Source of the DNA: a virus
Lineage: Duplodnaviria; Caudoviricetes
Length of the DNA: 64,000 nt
IMG/VR virus record: IMGVR_UViG_3300050509_000509
Span: 1 to 64,000 of that record
Reading direction: 5' to 3' (one strand)
Shown: one piece after another, positions 3,808 through 57,645 of the stretch
How the letters are laid out: each line of letters starts with the position of its first letter
How positions within the stretch are numbered: position 1 is the first letter of the stretch
Position numbers and translations under genes: made by a program
The notes under the pieces: generated by a model
What the model saw: the letters and a program-made list of their open reading frames with translations, nothing else
Databases searched by the model: none
What the model was told of the DNA's origin: nothing

Positions 3808-4870
3808 GGTTGAATGGTCTGGAACCCTATTTTATAGTGTGACAGGAGAGTTTGGAGAGCCAGATTTCGCTATAACAGCAGAAGAATTATATCTGCAGGA
3901 TATTGGAAGTGCTACTTATACAGAATATGAAACAGGAGATCCTGATTTCATCCAGTTCCTCATGCAAAGATCTGATCTTCGAGTAATGCGACAGGGCCAT
4001 ATCCACTCTCATAATTCCATGGGTAGTTTCTTCTCTGGGACAGATGATGATGAGCTTATTGAAAATTCCGAGTTTCACAACTATTACTTCTCTCTTATCG
4101 TGAATAATAAGAATGAGATGGTAGGTAAGGTGGCCTTCAGAGCACAGGTAGATTCAGAAACCAAAGCATCTATGATATTCAAAGGTACTGATGGTCAACC
4201 CAAAGAGAAACATATGACTACCAAGAATCAGACAACATATGTATATGCATATAACTGTGATATGGAAGTTCCTGAGGTAGTAAATCAGATAGAACAAGCT
4301 CTGGAAAAGCAAGAGGAAAAAGACGAGGCTCGCAGGGAGGCTAATAGAAAGAGCACCTACGGGAGTTATGGCACCTCTTATAATACCTCTACTTACAATG
4401 GTAGATTATTTGGTGGGCCTGAGGAAGAGGAAGAAACGCCGGTAATAAATATGCCATCAGAGTTTGGTGATAGTTCAGAAGAAGAAATACCAGAGACGAG
4501 AGCAGAAAAAAAAGGAGGCATCGCATGGAGAAGAAAACGCGCCAGTCGTCCACTCAACAGAAAAAGCGTGGACTTCCTGATAAAGCTGCTCAAAATGGAC
4601 AAAGGCGCAAATGGAAAAATCGAAGAAACTCTCGAAGAGGTCGTAGGTGATATATGGCGTGACAAAAAGAATGACGAATATTTCGCAGAGATATCTGATA
4701 AGTTACCTTACCTGTATATGGAAGTCTTCCCTAATGATCAGAAGCTCGATGGAATTGATGATACAATCTACGATTGTCTTGATCTCCTTGATCTGTATGA
4801 AGACAAGTATCCCAATTTCACTGAACGTATGATAGATGTATTCACCAAATACTTAACACCAACTGTATGA
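3650..4870 (+). CDS. JAB/MPN+ metalloprotease (deubiquitinase-like)
   Basis: VEWSG (catalytic Glu) and GHIHSHNSMGSFFSGTD match the JAMM motif HxH-x7-S-x2-D. Start could be 3650 or 3722. Confidence 0.85.
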   Translation: MRTQRSSSNYAKRSAQTSQQPRLTMRTLEATIPVEISQKLQLQTMTLCGRLPRVEWSGTLFYSVTGEFGEPDFAITAEELYLQDIGSATYTEYETGDPDFIQFLMQRSDLRVMRQGHIHSHNSMGSFFSGTDDDELIENSEFHNYYFSLIVNNKNEMVGKVAFRAQVDSETKASMIFKGTDGQPKEKHMTTKNQTTYVYAYNCDMEVPEVVNQIEQALEKQEEKDEARREANRKSTYGSYGTSYNTSTYNGRLFGGPEEEEETPVINMPSEFGDSSEEEIPETRAEKKGGIAWRRKRASRPLNRKSVDFLIKLLKMDKGANGKIEETLEEVVGDIWRDKKNDEYFAEISDKLPYLYMEVFPNDQKLDGIDDTIYDCLDLLDLYEDKYPNFTERMIDVFTKYLTPTV

Positions 4871-7079: not shown

Positions 7080-7279
7080 TGAGCTTTAAAGTGTATGTAG
7101 CACCTGATCGCCAGTCAGCTGAGCACATAGAAGAGCATGGATTCTCAGAGGTGACAGATAGAGATATACAAATTGATATATACGAATTTGATACAATAGA
7201 AGAAGCAAGAGCTTTTTGCAAAGGAATAGACTATGGGGCAGGATGGGCTCAACCTTATTATGAAATCAAATCTTCATGA
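7079..7279 (+). CDS. Small hypothetical protein
   Basis: 66-aa ORF with start/stop overlaps on both sides. Confidence 0.6.
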   Translation: MSFKVYVAPDRQSAEHIEEHGFSEVTDRDIQIDIYEFDTIEEARAFCKGIDYGAGWAQPYYEIKSS

Positions 7280-8355
7280 CAGAGCGGGAATACAGGGCAC
7301 TTGAGATTGATTCCTATTCAACCCTCAAGGACTTCCTGGAAGACAGGAAGAAATATTACAAGAAATATATATTGAAAGAGCCAGTAAAGGAAGAAGAATC
7401 TCCCTACCTGGTATTTGGGAATGTGGTAGACTGTTTACAGTTCACCCCTTCCCTGTTTGAGGAGAAATTTGCAGTGGCAGTCACTCAGGTCCCTACCGGA
7501 CAGTATGGGAAATTTGTTGATGAGATGGTAAAGATTACCTTTTCATGCCTCTCTGAGAGAGGAGAAGTGACTATGCATATTGAGGATATTATTACTGAGG
7601 CGTATAATAGATGTAAGTTCGATAGAAATGGAAATGTTGTTGATTTTAAGCGTGATAGTTTAGAAGTGGCGACTCAGAAATTTTTGGGCACTGAATTGGA
7701 GATGTATTACCGACAGAGAAGAGAAGCTTTTGGAAAGACGATTATTGAAGCCTCTATGTTGGAGAATGCCCAACGTGTTGTGGCAGAACTTATGAGCAAT
7801 GATGTGACCAAGTATATCATGACCCTGGAAACGGATCGAGATACTGTAGCTGTATATAATCAATTTCCTATTATAGGAAAGATGGATGGCGCAATGATAG
7901 GAGGATCAGATTTTCCTCTGAAGTGCCTGATTGATAAACTGGTTATTGATCACAAGCTAAGAAGTATTTATATCTATGATCTAAAAACAGCCTGGGACAA
8001 CGAAGGTGAGTTCCTGCACAATTATTTCAAGTACAAGTATTACATCCAGATGGCAGTGTATTTCTACCTGGTGGTGGAATGGAAGCTCAGCCAGCCGGAG
8101 ATCGCAGATTACCAGGTTCATTATCCTTCTTTCATCGTGGCAGATAGTTCGAATTACAAGAACCCGCTGATTTATGCCACGACCCAGGAGAATTTTCATC
8201 AAGGAATGCGGGGGTTTACTATAAGAGGTAAGTATTACCCAGGTGTTATTAAGGCAGTTCAGGATTTAATATGGCACGAAGAGACAGGAATTTGGAGCAT
8301 CAGTAAGGACAACCACACTGCAGGAGGAATTGTACGTATTCAGCCTTTTCAGTAA
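7276..8355 (+). CDS. PD-(D/E)xK exonuclease (RecE/DUF3799/Cas4-like superfamily)
   Basis: SYSTLK, FGNVVD, KCLIDKL...IYDLKT...YKYYIQMAVY motifs. Confidence 0.8.
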   Translation: MTEREYRALEIDSYSTLKDFLEDRKKYYKKYILKEPVKEEESPYLVFGNVVDCLQFTPSLFEEKFAVAVTQVPTGQYGKFVDEMVKITFSCLSERGEVTMHIEDIITEAYNRCKFDRNGNVVDFKRDSLEVATQKFLGTELEMYYRQRREAFGKTIIEASMLENAQRVVAELMSNDVTKYIMTLETDRDTVAVYNQFPIIGKMDGAMIGGSDFPLKCLIDKLVIDHKLRSIYIYDLKTAWDNEGEFLHNYFKYKYYIQMAVYFYLVVEWKLSQPEIADYQVHYPSFIVADSSNYKNPLIYATTQENFHQGMRGFTIRGKYYPGVIKAVQDLIWHEETGIWSISKDNHTAGGIVRIQPFQ

Positions 8356-8945: not shown

Positions 8946-8955
8946 AAATAATTAT

Positions 8956-9369
8956 ATGGACAAATCATATTTGTCGTTGGACTATGACTTTATAAAGGAA
9001 AGATTTCCGCTCTCTCTGAGGGCCGTGGAAGAATGGTTCCTGAAGAACAACGATATAGCAAAGGGGTTGAAGATGCTGGGTGCAGATATGACTCATAGCA
9101 GTGCAATGAGTAAGGTTGTTATGTCAGTTATCATGTTCGATCCCCGAAAGTTGTATGACGTATTTGACGATCTGGACTGTCGGATATGTATTACTGATCG
9201 TCCGGAATACCCAGGTACTTTTTGCTACTACAATAGCATGAAGAGGGAATCCAGGGTAGGCACAGGGAGAAAAAATGCAGAGTTGTTTGCTTTTATGGAA
9301 GCGTTTGAAGTACTGGAAAAAAACCTGGCAGATGGCAAGAACAAAGAACGAGTACAAACATCTGATTAA
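8956..9369 (+). CDS. Hypothetical protein
   Basis: 137-aa ORF in the operon. Confidence 0.6.
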   Translation: MDKSYLSLDYDFIKERFPLSLRAVEEWFLKNNDIAKGLKMLGADMTHSSAMSKVVMSVIMFDPRKLYDVFDDLDCRICITDRPEYPGTFCYYNSMKRESRVGTGRKNAELFAFMEAFEVLEKNLADGKNKERVQTSD

Positions 9370-9815: not shown

Positions 9816-9851
9816 CCTCCTGATCATTCCTGATTGAGGAGGTTATTTTTT
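9816..9851 (+). terminator. Intrinsic terminator upstream of recA
   Basis: CCTCCTGATCA-TTCC-TGATT(G)AGGAGG followed by TTATTTTTT. Confidence 0.6.
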
Positions 9852-9869
9852 CTTTATCAAAAAAATAAC

Positions 9870-10880
9870 ATGCCACGACAATCAGAAAGTATGACAGAAG
9901 CCAGAACAGCCTTACAGAAAGAATTAGATAGATGTGAAAAGGAATTTGGGGTTGGCACAGTAATTAGCTCCTCTCAGAGAGGAGAGAGAGTAGAGGTAAT
10001 ATCGACAGGATCGTTGACACTTGACAAGGCGACGGGAATAGGAGGTCTACCAAGAGGTAAGGTGGTAGAGATTAAGGGTTGGGAATCGAGTGGGAAGAGT
10101 ACATTAATGTTACAGACCATTGCAAATGCGCAACATATGGGATTAAAGTGCCTCCTTGTAGACGGTGAGGAAAGTTTTGACAAGAAATATGCGCAAAATC
10201 TTGGTATAGATACAGATGCTTTAATGATAAGACAATTGGATGAACATGGTGGGGAGAGATGTTATGATATAGCCGAAAGGCTCATGAGGACCAGGGAACT
10301 TGGGGTAGTAATATTTGACTCACAGACCTCACTGCTACCGAAGAAGGTATTGACGAGTTCATCAGCTGAAAGTGCTATTGGATTGCATGCTCGTTTAATG
10401 AGTCAGACTGTGCCAAAAATTGTGAATGCAGCAGCCTATGGCAATACACTGGTTGTATATATATCTCAGCTCAGAGAGAAGGTAGGATTTATATTCGGCA
10501 ACCCAGAGACCACTAATGGTGGGCATGCACTGAAGTTCTATGCGCATATGCGTATTGATGTAAGCAAGAGCGTGATTAAGGATACGGAGACCAAAGAGGC
10601 CATGGCTAATAAGACGATCTGTAAGGTAATCAAGAATAAACTTGCCCCTCCATTTGGTGAGGCGAGTTTTCGAATAAATTTTGGAACAGGAGTAGATACC
10701 AACTTTGAACTTATGGATCTTGGAGAAGAGCTCGGTATATTGATGCGCTCTGGTTCATGGTTTAAATACAAGGATGAAAATATAGCTAACGGAGACAAAA
10801 ATATGCACCAGTTATTAGAGGATAATCCTTTACTGGCAGCTGAGCTACATCAGATTATCAAAGAAAAACTCTTACAATGA
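9870..10880 (+). CDS. recA: RecA recombinase
   Basis: ISTGSLTLDKATGIGGLPRG, Walker A GWESSGKST, SQLREKVG, GNPETTNGGHALKFYA, KNKLAPPF. Likely start MPRQ at 9870. Confidence 0.95.
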   Translation: MPRQSESMTEARTALQKELDRCEKEFGVGTVISSSQRGERVEVISTGSLTLDKATGIGGLPRGKVVEIKGWESSGKSTLMLQTIANAQHMGLKCLLVDGEESFDKKYAQNLGIDTDALMIRQLDEHGGERCYDIAERLMRTRELGVVIFDSQTSLLPKKVLTSSSAESAIGLHARLMSQTVPKIVNAAAYGNTLVVYISQLREKVGFIFGNPETTNGGHALKFYAHMRIDVSKSVIKDTETKEAMANKTICKVIKNKLAPPFGEASFRINFGTGVDTNFELMDLGEELGILMRSGSWFKYKDENIANGDKNMHQLLEDNPLLAAELHQIIKEKLLQ

Positions 10881-14324: not shown

Positions 14325-14903
14325 CTATGGTGTAGTTGTAGTTGTAGTTGTTGTACTGGTTGTTGTAGTTGTAGTTGTGGTGGTCGTAGTAGTGGTCGTA
14401 GTGGTCGTTGTTGTGGTAGTAGTGGTGGTGGTTGTGGTTGTTGTAGTAGTTGTAGGTCCTACAGTAGCTGTAACTGTATAGGTCTGGAAAGGCTCCGCAG
14501 TGAACGAACAGGTGATCGCAGCAGTCTGCGATGCATCTGTACATACCACATCTCCTGCCACATTCGTTACTGTGACAGTACGATAAGTGCTACCATCTGC
14601 TACAGTAGCTTCAATGAAGTTGCCCTGTGTCGCAGTAAATGTACCTGTCTCAGTAGTTGTACTGGTAACAACTGTTGTACCATTAACATCAATAGTCAGT
14701 GTACCATTCTGACCACCCAATTCTGCAAAGGAGAAGTTGTTGATGTCAGGAGTGCAACATTCATTGGCATTAATTTCAAACCAATAGAATCCCCTTCCAC
14801 CTTCCGGCTTTTTATAGCGAAGGATGAGAGTTCCAGGGACGACCTGCCCAAGTTTATCAACTTTGACAAAGGCTCTTAGCCTCGGGTCTCTTCTTGTAGA
14901 CAT
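14325..14903 (-). CDS. Putative virion protein with 41-residue poly-Thr C-terminal tail
   Basis: Beta-rich domain followed by T32-S-T8-P-stop. Confidence 0.75.
   Translation of the reverse strand: MSTRRDPRLRAFVKVDKLGQVVPGTLILRYKKPEGGRGFYWFEINANECCTPDINNFSFAELGGQNGTLTIDVNGTTVVTSTTTETGTFTATQGNFIEATVADGSTYRTVTVTNVAGDVVCTDASQTAAITCSFTAEPFQTYTVTATVGPTTTTTTTTTTTTTTTTTTTTTTTTTTTTTTTTSTTTTTTTTP
14331..14453 (-). repeat. ACN codon repeat (poly-Thr)
   Basis: 41 codons using mixed ACA/ACT/ACC/ACG. Confidence 0.9.
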
Positions 14904-14907
14904 ATAT

Positions 14908-15996
14908 TTAATTTTGATTTTGTCCTCTTCGTCGTACTTCGATACCTATCTGCTCCATGGGAGCTTCGAAGATCTTGTACATATCAAGTCTTGCTTCTTG
15001 TATCTCACCCACATAATTCTTCGAGCAATACTCATTTGAAACAAAACTCAAATCATCTTCAAAGGGTGTCTTCTCATTATTCACATAAGGCAAATCCCTC
15101 TTATGGAAGAGCATATGCCCTTCCTCTACTGGCCGGGTAGATGCTCCTGCATCATGATATATCTGTACTTTATCCCACTTCTCTATCTTATCTGTGGCCC
15201 AGCAAAAATCCATTTCAGGTGGGCATTCTGTCTTCATACCCTTTTTCCACAGGTTGAACAGAATACTCCACATATCTGCACACCAGGATTGGAAACCTTT
15301 GTCCTCATTCTCAAAGAAACGCTTGTTTACGCTCCTCAAATTCAACCTGACTGTTATACAACCTTTGAATACATCCTGCCAAAATTGAGCATCTATGTTC
15401 TTCAGGAGATACTGTGCACCACCAGACCCTTGCTCGTTCATAACAGCTGTTTCACGTGAAACACCGAACTCTTTGAGCAGGTCACCTAATACATCAATCT
15501 TTTTATAGGAATCAAGCCTTTGAGGAAGAACGTCCTTAATCTTGCTATCGAAGTAGGAAGCAGCGATGTAGCTACGAGTATCACTCAGGTAACATGTATC
15601 GTCACCCAGAAGATTATCGAAGTTAGGCTTTTTGGTGAATATTACATCACTATCCATATATAGAATTGCATTCTCTCTCAGAGAGGACGCAGTTTCGAAG
15701 TATTTGGCAAGGAGCCATGGTCTGAGCAGAGGTATATAGCCTGTTTGCTGGATAAGACGTGGAAGCTCCCCGGTAGTATCTTCTATGAATACGAAATTTG
15801 CTTCTGGATAATCTCCTATTAGCCCTCCCCATTCTTCAGCAAAGGTTCTTCCTCCTTCTCTATTGCTATGTTTCCAGATGAGTGCTGTATAGTTCTCTGA
15901 GAGACCATACTTACGGAGATTATGAAGCTGCACCCTGAGCTGCCATACGAAGTAAAGATCGTTGGGTTGAGCTGTAATGATCCTAAGTTGTCGCAT
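14908..15996 (-). CDS. GT-A glycosyltransferase resembling plant peptide O-glycosyltransferases (SGT1/GT96, HPAT/GT95)
   Basis: YFVWQ, YIPLLRPWLL, ILYMDSDVIF (DxD), GGAQYLL, WCADMW. Confidence 0.65.
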   Translation of the reverse strand: MRQLRIITAQPNDLYFVWQLRVQLHNLRKYGLSENYTALIWKHSNREGGRTFAEEWGGLIGDYPEANFVFIEDTTGELPRLIQQTGYIPLLRPWLLAKYFETASSLRENAILYMDSDVIFTKKPNFDNLLGDDTCYLSDTRSYIAASYFDSKIKDVLPQRLDSYKKIDVLGDLLKEFGVSRETAVMNEQGSGGAQYLLKNIDAQFWQDVFKGCITVRLNLRSVNKRFFENEDKGFQSWCADMWSILFNLWKKGMKTECPPEMDFCWATDKIEKWDKVQIYHDAGASTRPVEEGHMLFHKRDLPYVNNEKTPFEDDLSFVSNEYCSKNYVGEIQEARLDMYKIFEAPMEQIGIEVRRRGQNQN

Positions 15997-16699
15997 GCTC
16001 TTCCTCCCTTTTTAAGAACTCCTCTACCGATATAATATTCATTAACTCTGTCCTTCGATTATCGAAGTAATCCCAATCTTCCTGAGCACGCTCAAAGTTG
16101 ACATGGGCCATATTGAGTTGAAATGCTTTACCTCCTGCCGCCGGACCAGGATTCTGAAGGGGTCTTATTACACCAACTCCCCAGTCTGTATCTATAGTAT
16201 AATACTCAAAAGGTATAGCTGCTCCATACCGGAGTATAGCTTTGTAGCAATCTCCATTCCAGTTGCCACCCTGATCTCCTGTAGTAGTATGCTGGTAAGT
16301 GGGCGGATTCATATCATGAAGCACTATAGTGCCATTCTCTGAGAGGTGCGCGAGGGCATTTTGAATATCCCGGTATACCTGACTTGCTTCATGAAGACCG
16401 TCAATAAATACTATATCGTATTTCTGGATCTCGTTTATTCTCTCGAAATATTGGTCGGAAGTACATTTGAATATGGCCTCCGCCTTTGTAGGCTGATCAG
16501 GCTCCCTCCAGAAGGTATGTACTATAGAATCAGCTGGCATTCTTTCCTTCCGGATATCTTTGGAAGGATTAGGGTCTACTGCTACCTTATGAGCACAATC
16601 TACATTATCAAATGACCAGCCTTTAAAATATCCTATTTCCAGGTATGATTTGTAATCATACTTTGTAATGAAGTGATTAATGATGTCCCATCTATTCAT
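15983..16699 (-). CDS. Class I SAM-dependent methyltransferase (Methyltransf_24-like, probable sugar O-methyltransferase)
   Basis: SYLEIG, VAVDP, YDIVFIDGLH, GTIVLHD. Confidence 0.85.
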   Translation of the reverse strand: MNRWDIINHFITKYDYKSYLEIGYFKGWSFDNVDCAHKVAVDPNPSKDIRKERMPADSIVHTFWREPDQPTKAEAIFKCTSDQYFERINEIQKYDIVFIDGLHEASQVYRDIQNALAHLSENGTIVLHDMNPPTYQHTTTGDQGGNWNGDCYKAILRYGAAIPFEYYTIDTDWGVGVIRPLQNPGPAAGGKAFQLNMAHVNFERAQEDWDYFDNRRTELMNIISVEEFLKREEEHATT

Positions 16700-16734
16700 A
16701 TATGCTTGGTTTTTAGCGACTTGACGTAGAGCCC

Positions 16735-17226
16735 CTACTTTGCCCAGTCGTCTATAGTTACTTTGACGCGCCTGAGGGCTTCTCGGGATCTCCTTTTATA
16801 ATCCATAGTCTGTTCATAAGGACATTTTTCCCATCCTCTAACCTTTGTTCTTGGTTTTGGAGGAGTAGTATGCTTCAGGAATTTTAATATTGTCTTCTCC
16901 AAGGCAGAGATATGTTTTCTGCTAAGTCTCAACAACGCAAATCCCGACCTTCTAACAAGATCTGATTTCTTTGCATCATTCTCTTTCTGTTGTTTGGTGC
17001 TGTGATATTTCGCCCCATCATATTCAATTACTACCCTTTTCCCCGGAACTATAAAATCAAAAACGTAATATCCTCCCTGTTCGTTTCTTCCCTCCCAGAA
17101 AGAGATTTCCTGCTTGAACTTTACTCTGTTCTTTTTCAGGATATTAGCTATCCTGTTTTCCATCGGAGATCTCTCACTATTCTCTAATCTCCATGTATTA
17201 ACGAACCATCCCTTGGGCTTTTTCAT
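16735..17226 (-). CDS. Vsr/DUF559-like endonuclease
   Basis: SPMENRIANIL, FKQE, YVFDF, VIEYDG..YH, ENDAKK, GFALLRL; basic C-terminal tail. Confidence 0.8.
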   Translation of the reverse strand: MKKPKGWFVNTWRLENSERSPMENRIANILKKNRVKFKQEISFWEGRNEQGGYYVFDFIVPGKRVVIEYDGAKYHSTKQQKENDAKKSDLVRRSGFALLRLSRKHISALEKTILKFLKHTTPPKPRTKVRGWEKCPYEQTMDYKRRSREALRRVKVTIDDWAK

Positions 17227-17239
17227 ATAAAATTTCTGC

Positions 17240-17543
17240 TTTTGGGTAATGGAACATTTACATCCGGAGACAGAACTCGGATTCCTGTGGCCTTTTTACG
17301 TACTTTTGTCCACAGAAGGCTTAAACAAACACTCCATACATCCGTTTTTAGATGGAGAACTGAAAATTCTTTTTCCGTTTAAGTCTCCGTCGGGGGTCAT
17401 CATGTTCGAGATGTTGCCCCCACTTTTTTTTCAGTTTTGTCACTACGAGCCAGCTTTTCACCCCTACTCATAGCTTAGTTTGATAAACCGATTACCTTTT
17501 TACCACACCATAAGTACGCGATGTGATTAACCGGGAGGAACCA
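17240..17543 (-). ncRNA. Unidentified large structured RNA upstream of the endonuclease
   Basis: At least nine complementary segment pairs, including long-range and pseudoknot pairings. G-U wobbles are consistent only with the - strand. Confidence 0.55.
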
Positions 17544-18215
17544 CTAAGAACCGGTAGTTTGTGAATGTGAATCCACAAATCTTTTTGTTGTTGAAAATTC
17601 ATTGCTCGAACGAGTCAGCACATATTCCTCTTCATCGCTGAGCGCATTATAGTCCAGATACCAGGGTATGTGCTTTGCAGTCATATTGCCGGCTATTCGG
17701 ATTGATTCATATTGAAAGGGGAGACCCACCTTTATTACACTAAAAGTGGTGTCTACCCCTGCTATATAAACGTCTGTCTCCAGGGATTTCTCCCAGTATC
17801 TTTTCTCCCAATGCCTAGCATAGTTCGCATACTCACTGTCTGGTAAATCATCTATTCGGAGGGCCAGTCCTGCTTTATCGTATTTATATTTTTCGGCCAA
17901 CTGAATCATTTTTTCAATAAAGGCTTCAGGTGTATTAGGGTTTAGTTCTATATCTGAGTCAGTATAGGCTATCCATGAACCCTGCTCGAAATTATTTATG
18001 TAGTCACTGTTGTATACAGCAAGCTGTCCCAGGTTTGAATCCAGGCATACCACCTCACAACCACATTCTTTATACCACTCTCTGAGAGGGGTATACGAAG
18101 AGTTGTTATCAATAATGTGTAGGTTTACGTACCCCAGTCTCTGCAGGTCCATTAGTAACTTCCGGGTAGTTGTCAACCTGTTGAAGTTGTTGATGATTAT
18201 TGGTATCTGGCTCAC
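17544..18215 (-). CDS. GT2-like glycosyltransferase
   Basis: IPIIINNFNR, IIDNNSSY, NLGQ, YTDSD (DxD), DTTF. Confidence 0.8.
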   Translation of the reverse strand: MSQIPIIINNFNRLTTTRKLLMDLQRLGYVNLHIIDNNSSYTPLREWYKECGCEVVCLDSNLGQLAVYNSDYINNFEQGSWIAYTDSDIELNPNTPEAFIEKMIQLAEKYKYDKAGLALRIDDLPDSEYANYARHWEKRYWEKSLETDVYIAGVDTTFSVIKVGLPFQYESIRIAGNMTAKHIPWYLDYNALSDEEEYVLTRSSNEFSTTKRFVDSHSQTTGS

Positions 18216-18345
18216 TCAGACTTTTTTGAATCATTAGAAACATTTCATGTAAAAGGGCAGCATCTTCTGTCTTTGATATTAAACCCATCTTAATAGCTCC
18301 ATCACAAAGTTGTTTGAGCGTGCTTATAGCTTGTTCATTTGTCAT
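18109..18345 (-). CDS. Small hypothetical protein (possible fibre-associated)
   Basis: ATGA-coupled to the upstream fibre gene, but overlaps the GT gene by ~100 nt. Confidence 0.4.
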   Translation of the reverse strand: MTNEQAISTLKQLCDGAIKMGLISKTEDAALLHEMFLMIQKSLSEPDTNNHQQLQQVDNYPEVTNGPAETGVRKPTHY

Positions 18346-19148
18346 ACAGCTTGTGCTACTAATTTATAATTCGTTCCACCTATATTAACTGTAATTGTTG
18401 AGTCAGCTGTTACAGTTTCAGTGGCAACACTGGATGCCATCAGGATATCTTCCCTGTCTGCTATTCGTACAAAAGTCAAATTAGTTCCATCATATTCCAA
18501 TCCACCTACTTCTGAAGGAGACATAAAAGTACCAGCGTCTATTTTTATAGGGGCTGTTCCAGGACTACCTGAGCTGCCTCCTATATGTATCCTGGCAGTA
18601 GGGGTAGTCTCAATGCCTAACCTACCGCCATTTATTACTACTTCAGCGTTGTTCACATCTACTATGAAATCAAATGTAAGATCCTTAGTGATGTGGAAAA
18701 ATCCCTGCAAGTTGATTAGATTAACCTGTTCAGATGCATTACTGGTATTAAGCTGTATATAAGGAGCATTGGAGAGATTGTCACGCAAATTGATGAATGT
18801 GCTTGCATTAGTGTTCATATTTATAACCAATGTGTTATCCTCGTTGTGCAAACCAATCACTCCTGCTGATACATCAGTACTGAGTCCCGAATCTATAAAA
18901 TTTACACTGAACCCTCCAGTGGGAACCTCACGTACAGAAGTAAGAACTGCTGGGCTTCCTGCTTCACCCACGTCCTGACCCAGTACAGTTTCACCAGCTG
19001 TGCTAATAGACAAGCCATCAGCTGCAGCTCCTCCCCCGCCAGAGGAAGACAGGAAACATAGATATTGATGAATAAACCGGAGCCTCCGGTTTAAATCGCG
19101 AATAGATAGATTGATAATAGGCTCGTAATTGCAAATGTTACCACTCAT
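18342..19148 (-). CDS. Tail fibre/spike-like protein
   Basis: Beta-strand-rich; GLS...LG shaft motif and LGIETTPTARIHIGG fibre-like repeat. Confidence 0.55.
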   Translation of the reverse strand: MSGNICNYEPIINLSIRDLNRRLRFIHQYLCFLSSSGGGGAAADGLSISTAGETVLGQDVGEAGSPAVLTSVREVPTGGFSVNFIDSGLSTDVSAGVIGLHNEDNTLVINMNTNASTFINLRDNLSNAPYIQLNTSNASEQVNLINLQGFFHITKDLTFDFIVDVNNAEVVINGGRLGIETTPTARIHIGGSSGSPGTAPIKIDAGTFMSPSEVGGLEYDGTNLTFVRIADREDILMASSVATETVTADSTITVNIGGTNYKLVAQAV

Positions 19149-19900
19149 AATGTAAGGTTATAATATTTTTGAACTTTTTCTTTAGGCCAGGGAGTGATTA
19201 TCCTATCTCCGTGATCCTGGCTAAAATTACGATAGTTTCCAAAATTATTGGGGTGTCCTGCATTTCCTGATGTTTTAAATGTTGGTACATCGGTATCTCC
19301 CCAGTTATATATCAGTGTTGGTTTACCTTTCTCGTCTACCAGAATCTGCCCACCATAAGCTAGTGGATCTACCCATTTAAGATGCTGATCACTTGTCGAT
19401 TCATGATACCCATGCTCTCTGAGATGGGAGAATGGTACAAAGATCGAGGGTTCAAGTGTATTACTCATCAGCTGGATACCCCCCGGGTGTCTATAGTACG
19501 ATTGTGCAGGTTTGTAGGCAATCTTTCCCTGCTCTCTTGCACGAAGTACTCCTTTGACTCCTTCAGAGATATGATTGGGCAAGAATAGATCATCATCATC
19601 CCAATGGATCACTATATCCATGTCTTCAGGTATATACTTCAGTGCATCATTATATATATCTCCCAGGTTTTCGTAAGGAAGGCCTGTCCTATGACTTACA
19701 TGCTGATTTATGAGCAGGACTTTCTTGTTTGGTACGAGCTCAACATCTTTTGCATCCAGACCAGGATGTTGTTCAATAGGGGAATTGTTATATATCAGCA
19801 GGATATGCTCTCCCTCATAATCCTGATCTCTGAATAGCCGTACACTCCGCTCACAGAGTGTATGGCGGCCACAAGTGGCCATGATAGCAACTACTTTCAT
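19145..19900 (-). CDS. GT2-family glycosyltransferase
   Basis: VVAIMATCGR, FRDQDY, NLGDIYN, IHWDDDDLFLPNHIS. Confidence 0.85.
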   Translation of the reverse strand: MKVVAIMATCGRHTLCERSVRLFRDQDYEGEHILLIYNNSPIEQHPGLDAKDVELVPNKKVLLINQHVSHRTGLPYENLGDIYNDALKYIPEDMDIVIHWDDDDLFLPNHISEGVKGVLRAREQGKIAYKPAQSYYRHPGGIQLMSNTLEPSIFVPFSHLREHGYHESTSDQHLKWVDPLAYGGQILVDEKGKPTLIYNWGDTDVPTFKTSGNAGHPNNFGNYRNFSQDHGDRIITPWPKEKVQKYYNLTL

Positions 19901-20235: not shown

Positions 20236-21402
20236 CTATTTTATTTCAGTTGTTCCATCTTCATACACATATACATATTTACCAATCTTATTTACCCATA
20301 CTCTTCCTTCTTCAATTTTCGATTGCATGACAGTGGTAGTTGTGGTAGTTGTGGTAGAAGTAGTAGAACCACCTCCCGCATAAGTTATTGTAACATCATC
20401 TGTTGCAATTCCTCCTTTGCCATCCTTCACTGTGAGCCTGTATGTATAATTGCCGACCTTCGGCATAAATGCATCTACGATATACCAACCAGATCCCTTA
20501 GGAAACAAAAGTCCACTGTCCCAAAGATTTACTCCATTAGGAACTGATATTGCAGACCAGCTACTAAGCTCAGGTTTGAAATTCTCTGACATACTGCCAT
20601 CAAGCTGTATAGTTTGTGCATTGACTGTACGATCCGGACCTGCTGCAGCCTTCAGAGAGGTACCACCAGAAGATCCTGGAACAGCTACGGGAGCATCTTT
20701 CGAATTCATGTACATCCACTCATAAATACTTACTGATGGATAGAGCAGACCCTGACCATTGGGAGCTATAGGAGGGGCATCTTTATAAACTGTATCCCAT
20801 CCACCATGGCCTGTAGCATTAAAGAGAGTCTTCACCGCTTTAAAAGCATTCGTATTTGCATTAATAGCATCTACAATCCCGTTGGTAGCTGCCACAGGAG
20901 TCCCACCATTAGTGTCATTGATATTATGAAATGCCCATACGGGTAATTGAGCATCTGCTACGTTCTTCCAGGTACCATTTACCCATGTTGTGGCGATAGG
21001 GATAGCAGTAGATAATTTCTGGGCTCTTGCAAGTGAGGAGCCTATGTAAGAGAAAGTACCCCCACCACCTAATGAAAGTCCTGTCAGGTTGATCTTGCTC
21101 TGGTTAACCTGTAGATTGGCCGAATAGGCGATCATTGCATCCACTTCATTGCCTGTGTAATTAGTAACCTGTGGTGCCAGCAAAAAAAATGGACGGGTAG
21201 TGCTTTGTACTGCAGATTTTAGATTGCCCGGAATCTCATTATTTAACAGATTATCCAGGCTATTTTCTCCATCTCCTGTACCACCTATACCATGTAGGAA
21301 GATGATAAGAGGTATATTAGTAGTGAGGGGTATATCTGGTTTGTATAATACAAATCCATACCCTGTCAAATTCTGCGATTTCCTGATTTTTTCGAAGCCC
21401 AT
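20236..21402 (-). CDS. Alpha/beta-hydrolase (esterase/peptidase-like) + PKD-like domain + poly-Thr linker
   Basis: IFLHGIG, TGLSLGG (GxSxG), WAFHNIND, GHGGW; AGPDRTV..LDGS..YTYRLTVKD PKD signature; STTSTTTTTTTT. Confidence 0.8.
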   Translation of the reverse strand: MGFEKIRKSQNLTGYGFVLYKPDIPLTTNIPLIIFLHGIGGTGDGENSLDNLLNNEIPGNLKSAVQSTTRPFFLLAPQVTNYTGNEVDAMIAYSANLQVNQSKINLTGLSLGGGGTFSYIGSSLARAQKLSTAIPIATTWVNGTWKNVADAQLPVWAFHNINDTNGGTPVAATNGIVDAINANTNAFKAVKTLFNATGHGGWDTVYKDAPPIAPNGQGLLYPSVSIYEWMYMNSKDAPVAVPGSSGGTSLKAAAGPDRTVNAQTIQLDGSMSENFKPELSSWSAISVPNGVNLWDSGLLFPKGSGWYIVDAFMPKVGNYTYRLTVKDGKGGIATDDVTITYAGGGSTTSTTTTTTTTVMQSKIEEGRVWVNKIGKYVYVYEDGTTEIK

Positions 21403-57590: not shown

Positions 57591-57618
57591 AAAAAAGCCT
57601 ATCCAGTAATGGATAGGC
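57591..57618 (-). terminator. Intrinsic terminator (- strand)
   Basis: GCCTATCCA-4 nt-TGGATAGGC followed by T6 on the - strand. Confidence 0.8.
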
Positions 57619-57645
57619 CGACCCCTTAAACCAAGAAACCGAGGT

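Follow-up and report, generated by a model that had tools for sequence, protein, structure and literature searches.

A probable free-standing Vsr-like homing endonuclease gene with a long, apparently constrained leader in an uncultured soil phage

Introduction

What is a 317-nt stretch of apparently non-coding DNA doing directly upstream of a nuclease gene in the densely coding late arm of a phage? The DNA analysed here, which we call the window, is a 64,000-nt stretch from an uncultured soil phage; in its late minus-strand arm, a nuclease gene and the gap 5' of it (hereafter the leader) lie between two sugar-modification genes, a glycosyltransferase (GT) and a methyltransferase (MT) gene (Table 1). 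An initial annotation of the window had pointed to this large, ORF-poor intergenic gap and read the locus as an inserted unit made of a Vsr/DUF559 nuclease and a pseudoknotted RNA of about 300 nt, possibly a ribozyme or an RNA-guided nuclease. By rough greedy ORF calls, the gap is indeed the sole one longer than 150 nt in the minus-strand arm (~12.4–64 kb).

Several known systems bear on the question. In the mobile units of HEARO/omega-RNA with IsrB or IscB, a non-coding region of ~300 nt stands 5' of the nuclease ORF, and Vsr-like endonuclease ORFs occur within group I introns, one case being the recA gene of Bacillus phage 0305phi8-36. Stand-alone Vsr-like endonuclease genes bring control elements with them, hairpins being reported in 15 of 16 5' UTRs (PMC2677866), and the seg, mob and I-Tev genes of T4 are described as controlled by terminators, RNA processing and hairpins that sequester the ribosome-binding site (RBS) (PMC2988022).

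Table 1. Features of the nuclease locus and related genes (positions in the window)
Feature	Position	Strand	Basis or remarks
Exonuclease VIII-like protein gene	7276–8355		recombination gene
UvsX-like recombinase gene	9834–10880		recombination gene
Methyltransf_24 methyltransferase (MT) gene, downstream flank	15983–16699	-	Pfam PF13578, E 7.7e-13
Spacer, 35 nt, with MT leader	16700–16734	-	homologous to the pre-start MT sequence of L003 and L117
Free-standing Vsr-like (DUF559) endonuclease gene, 163 aa	16735–17226	-	Pfam, fold, PHROGs
Non-coding leader (gap), 317 nt	17227–17543	-	ORF-poor; part of the inserted unit
Intrinsic-terminator-like element	17392–17431	+	G5...C5 hairpin followed by T8; -15.5 kcal/mol
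Post-stop hairpin	17504–17525 (arms 17504–17510/17519–17525)	-	7–9 bp, two G-U pairs, 19 nt past the GT stop codon
GT2-like glycosyltransferase (GT) gene, upstream flank	17544–18215	-	Pfam PF00535, weak, E 5.5e-4, below cut-off

Results

The nuclease has a minimal Vsr fold followed by a basic tail

Pfam, PHROGs and Foldseek agree on the Vsr/DUF559 identity given in the initial annotation. The ORF matches Pfam DUF559 (PF04480) with an E value of 1.4e-8 and 35 bits against a cut-off of 20.6, and its PHROGs matches are families annotated as homing, HNH or intron-encoded endonucleases; since its score against the NCBIfam DUF559 equivalog is far under the cut-off (23 versus 218 bits), family membership holds at the domain level only. 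An AF2 model (pLDDT 88.7) matched, at a Foldseek probability of 1.0, the I-Bth0305I catalytic domain (3r3p, TMt 0.73), Vsr (1cw0/1vsr) and 3hrl, and, at 0.99, PvuRts1I (4oq2); Vsr-fold proteins bound in mitoribosomes are also among the top structural matches. Across 51 aligned homologues, E23, E40, D57, D84 and K87 never vary, and conservation is 90% or more at E68, D70 and H75. By analogy with PMC2677866, these conserved residues may correspond to Asp51, His69 and Asp97 of Vsr.

The nuclease core is N-terminal, beginning ~20 residues into the ORF, and the closest homologues share that N-terminus. They (P0002-4, P0007 and P0020) also share the extra basic C-terminal tail that had been noted earlier, which ends in VTIDDW. 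This order is the reverse of that of the EDxHD enzymes, in which N-terminal NUMOD repeats (NUMOD/HTH) precede a C-terminal Vsr-like nuclease domain (PMC3239194); the protein here is also much smaller than those enzymes. The closest homologues are encoded on short ENA or Logan contigs, and searches of IMG/VR, metagenomes and genomes with P0002, P0003 and the family alignment returned distant relatives only (at most 42% identity). Purifying selection acts on this minimal Vsr-fold enzyme: in a diverged relative that carries it (see below), third codon positions account for 18 of the 25 listed substitutions, and synonymous codon changes outnumber non-synonymous ones by 16 to 7.

A Type III toxin-antitoxin system (ToxIN-like) was considered for the locus and rejected, as Tandem Repeats Finder returned 0 rows for 16600–17700 and the PADLOC matches were weak and to restriction-type nuclease models.

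Leader and nuclease form an insertion between two intact genes

The leader and the nuclease gene together make up a ~0.83-kb insertion at the GT/MT junction. In both of the syntenic relatives found (L003/L116 in genome G001 and L117 in genome G002), the MT gene directly follows the GT gene with neither nuclease nor leader between them, L003 having a GT–MT spacer of ~61 nt and L117 one of 1 nt. The records of both relatives are rated 100% complete, and an 861-nt stretch of the locus has no copy anywhere in either of them (best E 0.17). The GT protein is 64–69% identical to the syntenic gene products of L003 and L117, and its C-terminus is homologous to theirs through the stop codon. The 5' border of the insertion is the GT stop codon itself (17546–17544); the 3' border is the 35-nt spacer, which holds the MT gene's own leader motif CTAAAAACCAAG at 16716–16705. 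The same motif also stands ahead of several other start codons within the window.

A third, diverged relative, represented by short contigs from two soil runs (X4 and X5), keeps the cassette with the same neighbours: an X5 contig links the MT gene to the 3' end of the nuclease gene, and X4 contigs lead from the nuclease through the gap to the GT gene. The locus thus has the presence/absence polymorphism at a fixed site that is expected of homing genes, with the cassette absent in two of two relatives and present in a third. Both the inserted unit and the intact flanks proposed in the initial annotation are borne out by these empty-site relatives; as GT and MT are separate, intact genes there, nothing needs splicing.

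The leader is non-coding and appears to be constrained

In the diverged relative the gap is 94–96% identical to that of the window, as compared to about 81–88% in the adjacent coding stretches. Both runs have the same 1-nt indels at 17228, 17279, 17315 and 17351, which fit no ORF and indicate that the gap is non-coding. Comparing low-depth contigs (depth 3–5) that amount to effectively one relative from two studies, and only pieces at least 80% alike, we counted 7 differences in 198 nt of leader (17288–17485). The nuclease ORF had at least 20 differences in 182 nt (Fisher p 0.005), and the coding pieces on the flanks had 58 in 339 nt (p 9e-7). The relative has 47 further differences outside the listed set; in the worst case, with every unlisted difference of the overlapping contigs assigned to the gap (20/317 nt), the contrast loses significance versus the ORF (p 0.086) but persists versus the flanking genes (p 2e-5). 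By this comparison, the leader appears to be under sequence constraint and seems to evolve several times slower than the synonymous sites of its own nuclease gene.

The conserved island extends ~57 nt into the 3' end of the GT gene (17544–17601; 7 differences and 5 gap letters in 127 nt) and stops sharply at the point where contig and window cease to be alike. A tract acquired by recombination more recently than the surrounding locus would look like constraint.

Folding statistics do not single out the leader

The seven equal-length arm pairs put forward in the initial annotation do pair exactly, and every mismatch is A-C on the plus strand and G-U on the minus strand; the arms of the proposed closing stem are unequal (8 and 9 nt, GGTAATGG versus the reverse complement GGTAATCGG), and their pairing needs a bulge. 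As literal pairings the stems thus exist, but they are no denser than chance. The minimum free energy (MFE) of the whole gap on the minus strand is -80.0 kcal/mol versus a shuffle mean of -74.1 (z -1.07), 17 of 100 shuffles folding as well; the plus strand has z -0.96. Helices of at least 6 to 9 bp, whether or not G-U pairs are allowed, are no more numerous than the shuffle range gives, the observed count being reached by 10 to 60 of 100 shuffles. Sliding 100-nt segments reach z minima of -3.3 (minus) and -3.6 (plus) in the gap, around the G5 hairpin, as compared to -3.6 to -4.6 in neighbouring coding sequence. Neither folding energy nor helix content therefore exceeds that of shuffled sequence, and the 300-nt pseudoknotted fold as a whole finds no thermodynamic or statistical support. 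The earlier argument that G-U pairing places the fold on the nuclease-sense strand is right about the mismatches and is weakly mirrored in the folding z-scores of 17400–17600 (-1.2 to -1.9 on the minus strand versus +0.9 to +1.4 on the plus strand). The start-codon region of the nuclease is unpaired in the MFE structure.

Known RNA families were equally absent. Rfam gave no match at the gathering threshold across the whole 64 kb and, at E values up to 10, chance-level miRNA, snoRNA and lncRNA matches only (16600–17700 and 17200–17610), of which SNORA26 (E 6.1) alone lies inside the gap; ARAGORN found 0 tRNA genes. Neither the group I introns, to whose core the fold had earlier been loosely likened, nor HEARO, whose layout had been invoked, was matched in these searches, and complementarity between the leader and the empty-site junctions or flanks is at chance, the longest match being 10 nt (p about 0.06) and the others 7–9 nt (p 0.2–0.99).

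Two hairpins of the leader stand out

The post-stop hairpin is the only stem with observed covariation. In run X4, 17505 A>T is accompanied by 17524 T>A, converting an A-T pair into T-A, and indels fall in the hairpin's loop and flanks; the predicted folding energy of 17504–17525 is -7.7 kcal/mol in the window and -8.3 in the variant, versus -3.1 and -3.5 for the single changes. This compensatory double change lies in one of the hairpins of the initial annotation; we put the chance of one such case, roughly, at 0.04. An alternative hairpin at 17465–17516 (-16.8 kcal/mol) overlaps it.

The other element is the hairpin that had been placed at 17392–17421, with a G5...C5 stem when inspected by eye. 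As T8 comes next on the plus strand, it resembles an intrinsic terminator; on the sense strand it reads as A8 and then a hairpin. A terminator scan of the 64 kb gave six candidates, among which this element alone has a T8 run, and a second scan with stricter loop and stem rules did not list it. A comparable minus-strand candidate lies at a sensible intergenic place (57591–57641). The terminator-like hairpin suggests a putative short antisense RNA, although a sigma-70-like promoter at which it could start was found on neither strand of the gap. The Bacteroidota-type motif TAnnTTTG has a single plus-strand occurrence in the gap (17301–17308) and is not enriched in the window (37 matches versus 48 expected).

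The leader is not found upstream of distant nuclease relatives

Searching the leader against 83 loci (nuclease relatives and syntenic regions) gave a best blastn E value of 0.37 and no nhmmer match. Phage isolates gave neither a DNA nor a protein match, the leader has no second copy in its own genome beyond the gap itself, and an exact 24-nt pattern had 0 matches in IMG/VR. A 471-aa late protein of the window is likewise without a match among phage isolates. By crude ORF calls, the upstream gaps of 80 distant viral relatives of the nuclease have a median of about 111 nt, a rough figure that includes 6 stray values from loci without a callable ORF, 4 loci having no upstream ORF. Most distant relatives carry a long N-terminal protein extension, of 60–250 aa in many homologues, which makes this survey uninformative for the leader. 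The conserved RNA upstream of nuclease homologues that the initial annotation had anticipated was thus not seen in distant relatives, which mostly have the protein extension instead.

Two candidate relatives of the leader were discarded. The 368-nt upstream gap of a 134-aa relative on a marine contig (L085) contains an odd tRNA-like gene and is not related to the leader; a possible paralogy with the gap at 8946–9274, which shares an 11-mer, gave an unconvincing alignment, and 8946–9274 looks coding.

Discussion

We favour, with somewhat better than even confidence, the reading that this locus holds a Vsr-like homing endonuclease gene of the free-standing kind, preceded by a cis-regulatory leader that is constrained and unusually long and may include an antisense RNA. 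The cassette, taken as 16723–17543, would then sit exactly between the GT stop codon and the MT leader. The nuclease would cut relatives that lack it close to where GT and MT meet, and recombinational repair would then copy the cassette in; genes for a UvsX-like recombinase and an exonuclease VIII-like protein are present in the phage. The leader would act in cis, keeping nuclease expression low or well timed within the long late transcript. Its recognisable pieces would be the covarying post-stop hairpin and the strong hairpin that doubles as a putative opposite-strand terminator; the latter would end a short plus-strand antisense RNA at about 17431, overlapping the 5' UTR of the nuclease gene. 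Since the start-codon region is unpaired in the MFE structure, classical RBS sequestration is not evident. The hairpin-type controls reported from other homing endonuclease genes are far shorter than this 317-nt leader. A pseudoknotted fold, ribozyme activity or RNA guidance is not needed to explain the data, and a trans-acting or guide RNA is unlikely.

Comparison with known systems places the locus near several of them. As with HEARO/omega-RNA, a non-coding region of ~300 nt immediately precedes the nuclease ORF within a mobile unit, but the locus has no Rfam HEARO match, no transposon ends and no guide-like complementarity to its target, and its nuclease is of the PD-(D/E)xK/Vsr type rather than RuvC or HNH. 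With the group I introns that carry Vsr-like ORFs it shares a nuclease fold tied to phage DNA and RNA structure; unlike them, it interrupts no host gene and matches no group I family in Rfam at E up to 10, and its ORF comes after the RNA region rather than inside an RNA loop. In gene type it resembles the free-standing Vsr-like and EDxHD-related genes described from metagenomes and as I-Bth0305I (PMC2677866, PMC3239194): these have a Vsr-fold core with conserved acidic and His residues and include stand-alone inserts between phage genes, with their own hairpin-bearing 5' UTRs and a patchy distribution among close relatives. The Vsr-like precedents described there lie inside a fractured gene, an intron or an intein, whereas the insert here separates two different genes; and they have a single hairpin beside the start codon, whereas this leader runs to 317 nt and is more conserved than its ORF. 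Like the T4-type seg and mob genes, the cassette is an intergenic insertion in a polycistronic unit whose downstream gene keeps its expression signals, and terminators, RNA processing and hairpins are proposed to limit the expression of those genes (PMC2988022). The seg and mob nucleases are, however, GIY-YIG and HNH enzymes, and their terminators and hairpins are described there as lying on the sense strand near or in the ORF, whereas the sole canonical terminator here is antisense and the predicted fold leaves the start codon unpaired.

How else might the slow evolution of the leader be explained? A rather unlikely alternative is that the leader has no function and that its identity reflects a recent gene-conversion or co-conversion tract (about 17233–17601) between nuclease-carrying phages, the stems and the terminator being leftovers of the donor. 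The island's reach of ~57 nt into the GT gene and its abrupt end are what recombination tracts look like, such phages are mosaic and encode recombinases, the folding statistics are at chance, and a plus-strand terminator makes little sense in an all-minus arm unless it was imported. Yet the nuclease ORF of the same unit is clearly more diverged, and a tract would need one of its breakpoints precisely at the start codon; the leader moreover has seven indel events but few substitutions, the indels avoid helices, and the sole visible stem substitution pair is compensatory. [quoted passage not shown] The N-terminal extensions of many homologues would be in keeping with a remnant, as 317 nt fits about 105 aa, and the gap does contain small ORFs: one of 74 aa on the plus strand (17249–17473) and, by eye, one of 35 aa on the minus strand and two of 23 aa, one per strand. 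The closest homologues nevertheless start at the same N-terminus as the 163-aa ORF, and tblastn of 146 family proteins shorter than 400 aa (145 homologues and the query) against 16600–17700 reached a best E of 0.027 in the gap. A remnant would also diverge fast, whereas the gap is the most conserved segment, so that the decay version is already contradicted by the indel and conservation data; the shared 1-nt indels are spanned by the 74-aa and 35-aa ORFs, the two 23-aa ORFs escaping them in the indel-free stretch 17352–17500.

That the leader is instead a stable, structured sense RNA acting in trans, as a nuclease cofactor, scaffold, guide or ribozyme, seems to us distinctly unlikely. It is non-coding, travels with the nuclease and is better conserved than the ORF, which goes beyond what a simple UTR would lead one to expect; one hairpin of the initial annotation has a compensatory pair, six of the seven indel events lie outside the annotation's helices by our own count (chance about 0.09), and minus-strand folding is slightly favoured at 17400–17600. 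The nuclease subfamily also lacks the N-terminal NUMOD-type DNA-binding region of EDxHD enzymes (PMC3239194) and has the basic tail instead. The Vsr-fold proteins of mitoribosomes imply that the fold can sit on RNA. Against such an RNA stand whole-gap and helix-count statistics at chance, the lack of an Rfam match whatever the threshold, the chance-level complementarity of the leader to the empty-site junctions, and the failure to match the leader in the 83 loci of nuclease relatives and syntenic regions, most distant relatives having protein extensions or short gaps upstream. To our knowledge, the Vsr and EDxHD enzymes studied so far work as proteins alone. PMC3239194 likewise points to protein-only action. 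A more specific proposal, and a highly doubtful one, is that an RNA of ~320 nt would be the obligate partner of a NUMOD-less minimal Vsr-fold nuclease, co-mobile with it and more constrained than it, and would act as a brake of antisense or antitoxin type that lets the phage tolerate the nuclease, or else as a scaffold or specificity factor to which the basic C-terminal tail binds.

Free-standing homing endonuclease genes are common in phages, and the cassette itself is ordinary in that respect. What is unusual is the stripped-down nuclease of reversed architecture, a Vsr core followed by a short basic tail, found in a handful of metagenomic proteins, and the long non-coding leader, whose evolution seems several times slower than that of the gene's own synonymous sites. 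Should the conservation be an artefact of recombination, the cassette would be just another mobile nuclease gene; if an RNA were an obligate partner, it would represent a new RNA-protein architecture for homing endonucleases. If the constraint is real, the leader would be a functional RNA or DNA element carried along by selfish nuclease genes, and the locus a tractable case of how such genes are kept harmless in tightly packed late operons.

A nuclease and its leader occupy the glycosylation cluster

The source record is a linear, 73.8-kb IMG/VR virus with an estimated completeness of 59%. From ~12.4 kb to the end of the window every sizeable ORF lies on the minus strand, closely packed, and rough greedy ORF calls place a single gap of more than 150 nt in this arm, the 317 nt at 17227–17543, agreeing with its description in the initial annotation as the only large intergenic gap of the late arm. 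This leader separates a GT2-like glycosyltransferase gene, upstream in the direction of transcription, from a 163-aa nuclease ORF and, 35 nt beyond it, a methyltransferase gene. Around half of the window (23687–55453) is taken up by giant minus-strand ORFs in series (2134, 4150, 885, 1776 and 1635 aa). Two late proteins adjoining the glycosyltransferase/methyltransferase cluster carry poly-threonine, ~50 T at the C-terminus of a 192-aa ORF (14325–14903) and a T11 run in a 388-aa ORF (20236–21402), possibly as O-glycosylated linkers. None of 50,697 phage isolate records matched a 471-aa late protein, and the lineage appears to be uncultured.

Locus features and pieces of a diverged relative (soil runs X4/X5) compared with the window
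Feature	Position	Strand	Remark
GT2-like gene	17544–18215	-	upstream of gap
163-aa ORF (nuclease)	16735–17226	-	downstream of gap
Methyltransf_24 gene	15983–16699	-	35 nt beyond nuclease ORF
Methyltransferase piece	15902–15970		13 differences in 69 nt
Methyltransferase piece	16332–16402		13 differences in 71 nt
Nuclease 3' end	16733–16837		20 differences in 105 nt
Upstream ORF	18180–18273		12 differences in 94 nt
Nuclease 5' part + gap start	17045–17308		28 differences in 264 nt
Gap	17288–17485		7 differences + 2 single-base indels in 198 nt
Gap + glycosyltransferase 3' end	17475–17601		7 differences + 5 gap letters in 127 nt

The nuclease unit is absent from two syntenic relatives

The glycosyltransferase and the neighbouring 362-aa protein led to two related phages, L003 and L117 (125- and 126-kb IMG/VR records, each with a listed completeness of 100%), which are syntenic across the region at 47–74% protein identity. 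In both (2/2) the glycosyltransferase is followed directly by the methyltransferase: in L117 the stop codon TAA, one base and the start codon ATG succeed one another, and in L003 ~61 nt lie between the genes. The 861-nt stretch at this junction of the window has no counterpart anywhere in either record (best E 0.17). Since the window glycosyltransferase is homologous to theirs as far as its stop codon, and the 20–30 nt ahead of the methyltransferase start codon, with CTAAAAACCAAG, are homologous to the same position in the relatives, the inserted unit runs from ~17543 down to ~16723 and is made up of leader and nuclease ORF plus a few extra bases. These data show a presence/absence polymorphism at a precise intergenic site.

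The L003 spacer (4655–4715; ~61 nt versus 1 nt in L117) holds an extra ~45 nt with no clear match to the window insert, which could have been left behind by a lost insert or could have arisen as a separate small insertion. A second block lacking a counterpart in both relatives, 18216–19148, has ORFs of 78 aa (18109–18345) and 268 aa (18342–19148) with no Pfam or PHROGs match; the L003 and L117 genes matching 19145–19900 and 17544–18215 are separated by just ~80–290 nt, and this block is possibly a further accessory insertion within the cluster.

The protein is a minimal Vsr-like endonuclease

In Pfam the 163-aa protein scores above threshold for DUF559, and its PHROGs matches are families whose annotations read homing, HNH or intron-encoded endonuclease. 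Foldseek matches of its AlphaFold model (pLDDT 88.7) include the I-Bth0305I homing endonuclease, in its catalytic domain (3r3p; TMt 0.73), together with E. coli Vsr, PvuRts1I and 3hrl, a DUF559-like protein. With catalytic-type residues conserved, the protein belongs to the Vsr/DUF559 fold, the identity first assigned to it. The best Foldseek matches also include large Toxoplasma and Tetrahymena mitoribosomal proteins (9i05, 9g6k, 6z1p), so this fold is present in RNA-associated proteins too.

An exhaustive HMMER search returned 675 representatives at E up to 1e-3, one of which, P0002 (50% identity), reached E up to 1e-30. The five closest short homologues (P0002, P0003, P0004, P0007 and P0020) have the same architecture: an N-terminal nuclease core, then a basic linker, then a terminal (V/I)T(I)(D/E/N)D(W/Y/L) motif. 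The extra basic C-terminal tail noted in the initial annotation is thus present and common to all five. Most other relatives, including most of 80 IMG/VR loci, carry an N-terminal extension of 60–380 residues ahead of the nuclease domain, the arrangement described for the EDxHD family (PMC3239194). The window protein has its core at the N-terminus and its basic tail at the C-terminus; because it lacks the required domain order it is not a canonical EDxHD enzyme, and we classify it as a reversed-architecture minimal Vsr-like homing endonuclease.

The leader is apparently the best conserved part of the unit

A search of public sequencing runs recovered the stretch complete in two rhizosphere runs (a possible source) and half of it in a third, and small shares in two unrelated soil runs, X4 and X5, whose contigs (depth 3–5) were compared with the window only where at least 80% alike. 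X4 and X5 show the same variant, making this effectively one comparison. The diverged relative has the layout of the window locus: an X5 contig joins the methyltransferase region to the nuclease 3' end, X4 and X5 contigs span the nuclease through the gap, and one X4 contig extends into the glycosyltransferase 3' end; past 16962 and 17601 the X4 contigs continue as recognisably related sequence below the 80% threshold.

Within the nuclease ORF, 18 of 25 listed substitutions fall at third codon positions and the changed codons are 16 synonymous versus 7 non-synonymous, which marks the nuclease as a functional gene kept by purifying selection. For 17045–17308, 22 of the 28 differences are listed, and 20 of these lie inside the ORF; across the whole comparison, 47 further differences fall outside the listing. 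Divergence is lower in the internal gap piece (7 in 198) than in either the ORF (20 in 182; Fisher p 0.005) or the flanking coding pieces (58 in 339; Fisher p 9e-7). When all unlisted differences in overlapping contigs are assigned to the gap (20 in 317), p is 0.086 against the ORF, and the contrast with the flanks holds (p 2e-5). From this alignment the leader is apparently the best conserved part of the unit in this third relative, which contradicts its being a decayed coding remnant. X4 and X5 share gap indels at 17228 (-1), after 17279 (+T), after 17315 (+T) and at 17351 (-1), and X4, where it alone covers, has others at 17501 (-1), 17518 (-1) and 17528 (-3); conserved coding by a 74-aa plus-strand ORF, or another long frame in the gap, is excluded by the single-base indels.

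The leader may form local hairpins and matches no known RNA class

The initial annotation had read the gap as a densely self-complementary, ~300-nt pseudoknotted RNA. Its literal complementarities hold: all seven proposed stems with arms of equal length pair, and where they mismatch the plus strand has A-C and the minus strand G-U; the unequal-armed "closing stem" pairs only with a bulge. The density does not. Folding the entire gap gives -80.0 kcal/mol for the minus strand versus -74.1 ± 5.5 for dinucleotide shuffles (z -1.07; plus strand, z -0.96). Helix counts also stay inside the shuffle distribution, whether the minimum length is set to 6, 7, 8 or 9 pairs and whether or not G-U is allowed. 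Among sliding 100-nt windows in the gap, z reaches ~-3.3 to -3.6 around the G5...C5 hairpin (17392–17421) alone, and coding sequence on either side is equally low. The gap thus fails the thermodynamic tests for a generic structured RNA, and it is not a group I intron, a HEARO/omega-RNA or a ToxI-like array, each of which has a defining feature that was looked for here and is missing. Rfam gave no match at gathering threshold in the whole window and chance-level matches alone at E up to 10 around the gap; no tRNA, and no tandem repeats around the gap, were found. No leader segment matches the L117 and L003 empty-site junctions or the window's own flanks beyond chance, which makes an RNA guide directed to the homing site less likely. 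The upstream gap (368 nt, 2085–2452; MFE z -2.05) of a 134-aa stand-alone nuclease relative on L085, a marine metagenome contig, contains an aberrant 93-nt tRNA-like gene (2175–2267; ARAGORN "tRNA-???", 2-base anticodon entry).

Four gap substitutions are listed in the diverged relative: 17230 and 17232, just before the nuclease start, and 17505 A>T and 17524 T>A, which pair together in hairpin 17504–17510/17519–17525, so that A-T becomes T-A. The folding energy of this hairpin is -7.7 kcal/mol for the window sequence and -8.3 for the variant, versus only -3.1 or -3.5 when one of the two positions is changed alone; a rough estimate from ~65 proposed pairs and ~15 substitutions puts the chance of a compensatory hit at ~0.04. 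A mutually exclusive hairpin, 17465–17516, is more stable (-16.8 kcal/mol) and largely kept in the variant (-14.8). Indels near 17504–17525 affect the loop and the bases immediately flanking the stem, and by our count six of seven indel events lie outside the proposed helices (chance ~0.09), a placement that hints at local hairpins and does not bear on the long-range stems or pseudoknot.

On the plus strand, ACT8 directly follows the G5...C5 hairpin, one of six candidates, and the sole one with T8 (-15.5 kcal/mol), in a whole-window scan for stable hairpins immediately followed by six or more T; a similar minus-strand element is sensibly placed in an intergenic gap at 57591–57641. The plus-strand arrangement of the G5...C5 hairpin points to a putative transcript of that strand, which would stop near 17431 and lie antisense to the nuclease 5' UTR; no promoter for it was found. 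Because A8 precedes the hairpin on the nuclease-sense strand and no U follows, it is not a canonical sense terminator. In the MFE structure the ~16 nt immediately preceding the nuclease start codon are left unpaired, and classical control by ribosome-binding-site sequestration is thus not evident. A Shine-Dalgarno-like motif occurs in 3 of 41 rough gene calls in the window, and an A-rich ...AAACCAA... motif is repeated ahead of several other start codons, which would fit a Shine-Dalgarno-independent host such as Bacteroidota. The A-rich ...AAAACCAAG... motif stands 5–8 nt before several start codons (e.g. at 16705–16716 and before 1885, 12739 and 19900) and also precedes the methyltransferase gene in L003 and L117.

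Discussion

The locus is best supported as a free-standing Vsr-like homing endonuclease cassette, for which the data demonstrate the fold, catalytic-type residues, purifying selection and presence/absence polymorphism. The initial interpretation is supported in part: the inserted unit is borne out and one local hairpin gains weak support, and the pseudoknotted fold as a whole and the known RNA classes considered are not supported. The nuclease would cleave nuclease-less relatives and the cassette would be copied in through recombinational repair; the phage encodes its own UvsX-like recombinase and exonuclease VIII-like genes. Stand-alone Vsr-like endonuclease genes are already reported from phage-like metagenomic loci (PMC2677866).

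The T4 seg, mob and I-Tev genes are described as restrained by terminators, RNA processing and hairpins (PMC2988022), and by analogy the leader would most simply be a control region that acts in cis, and an antisense RNA may be part of it. Less probably, it would be a trans-acting RNA partner of a nuclease lacking the usual DNA-binding domain, as first proposed. Constraint on the leader could also be mimicked by a recent recombination tract, which would need a breakpoint at the nuclease start codon. What goes beyond precedent in this cassette is the leader's length and apparent constraint: judged from the one diverged carrier, a long non-coding leader is apparently under constraint.
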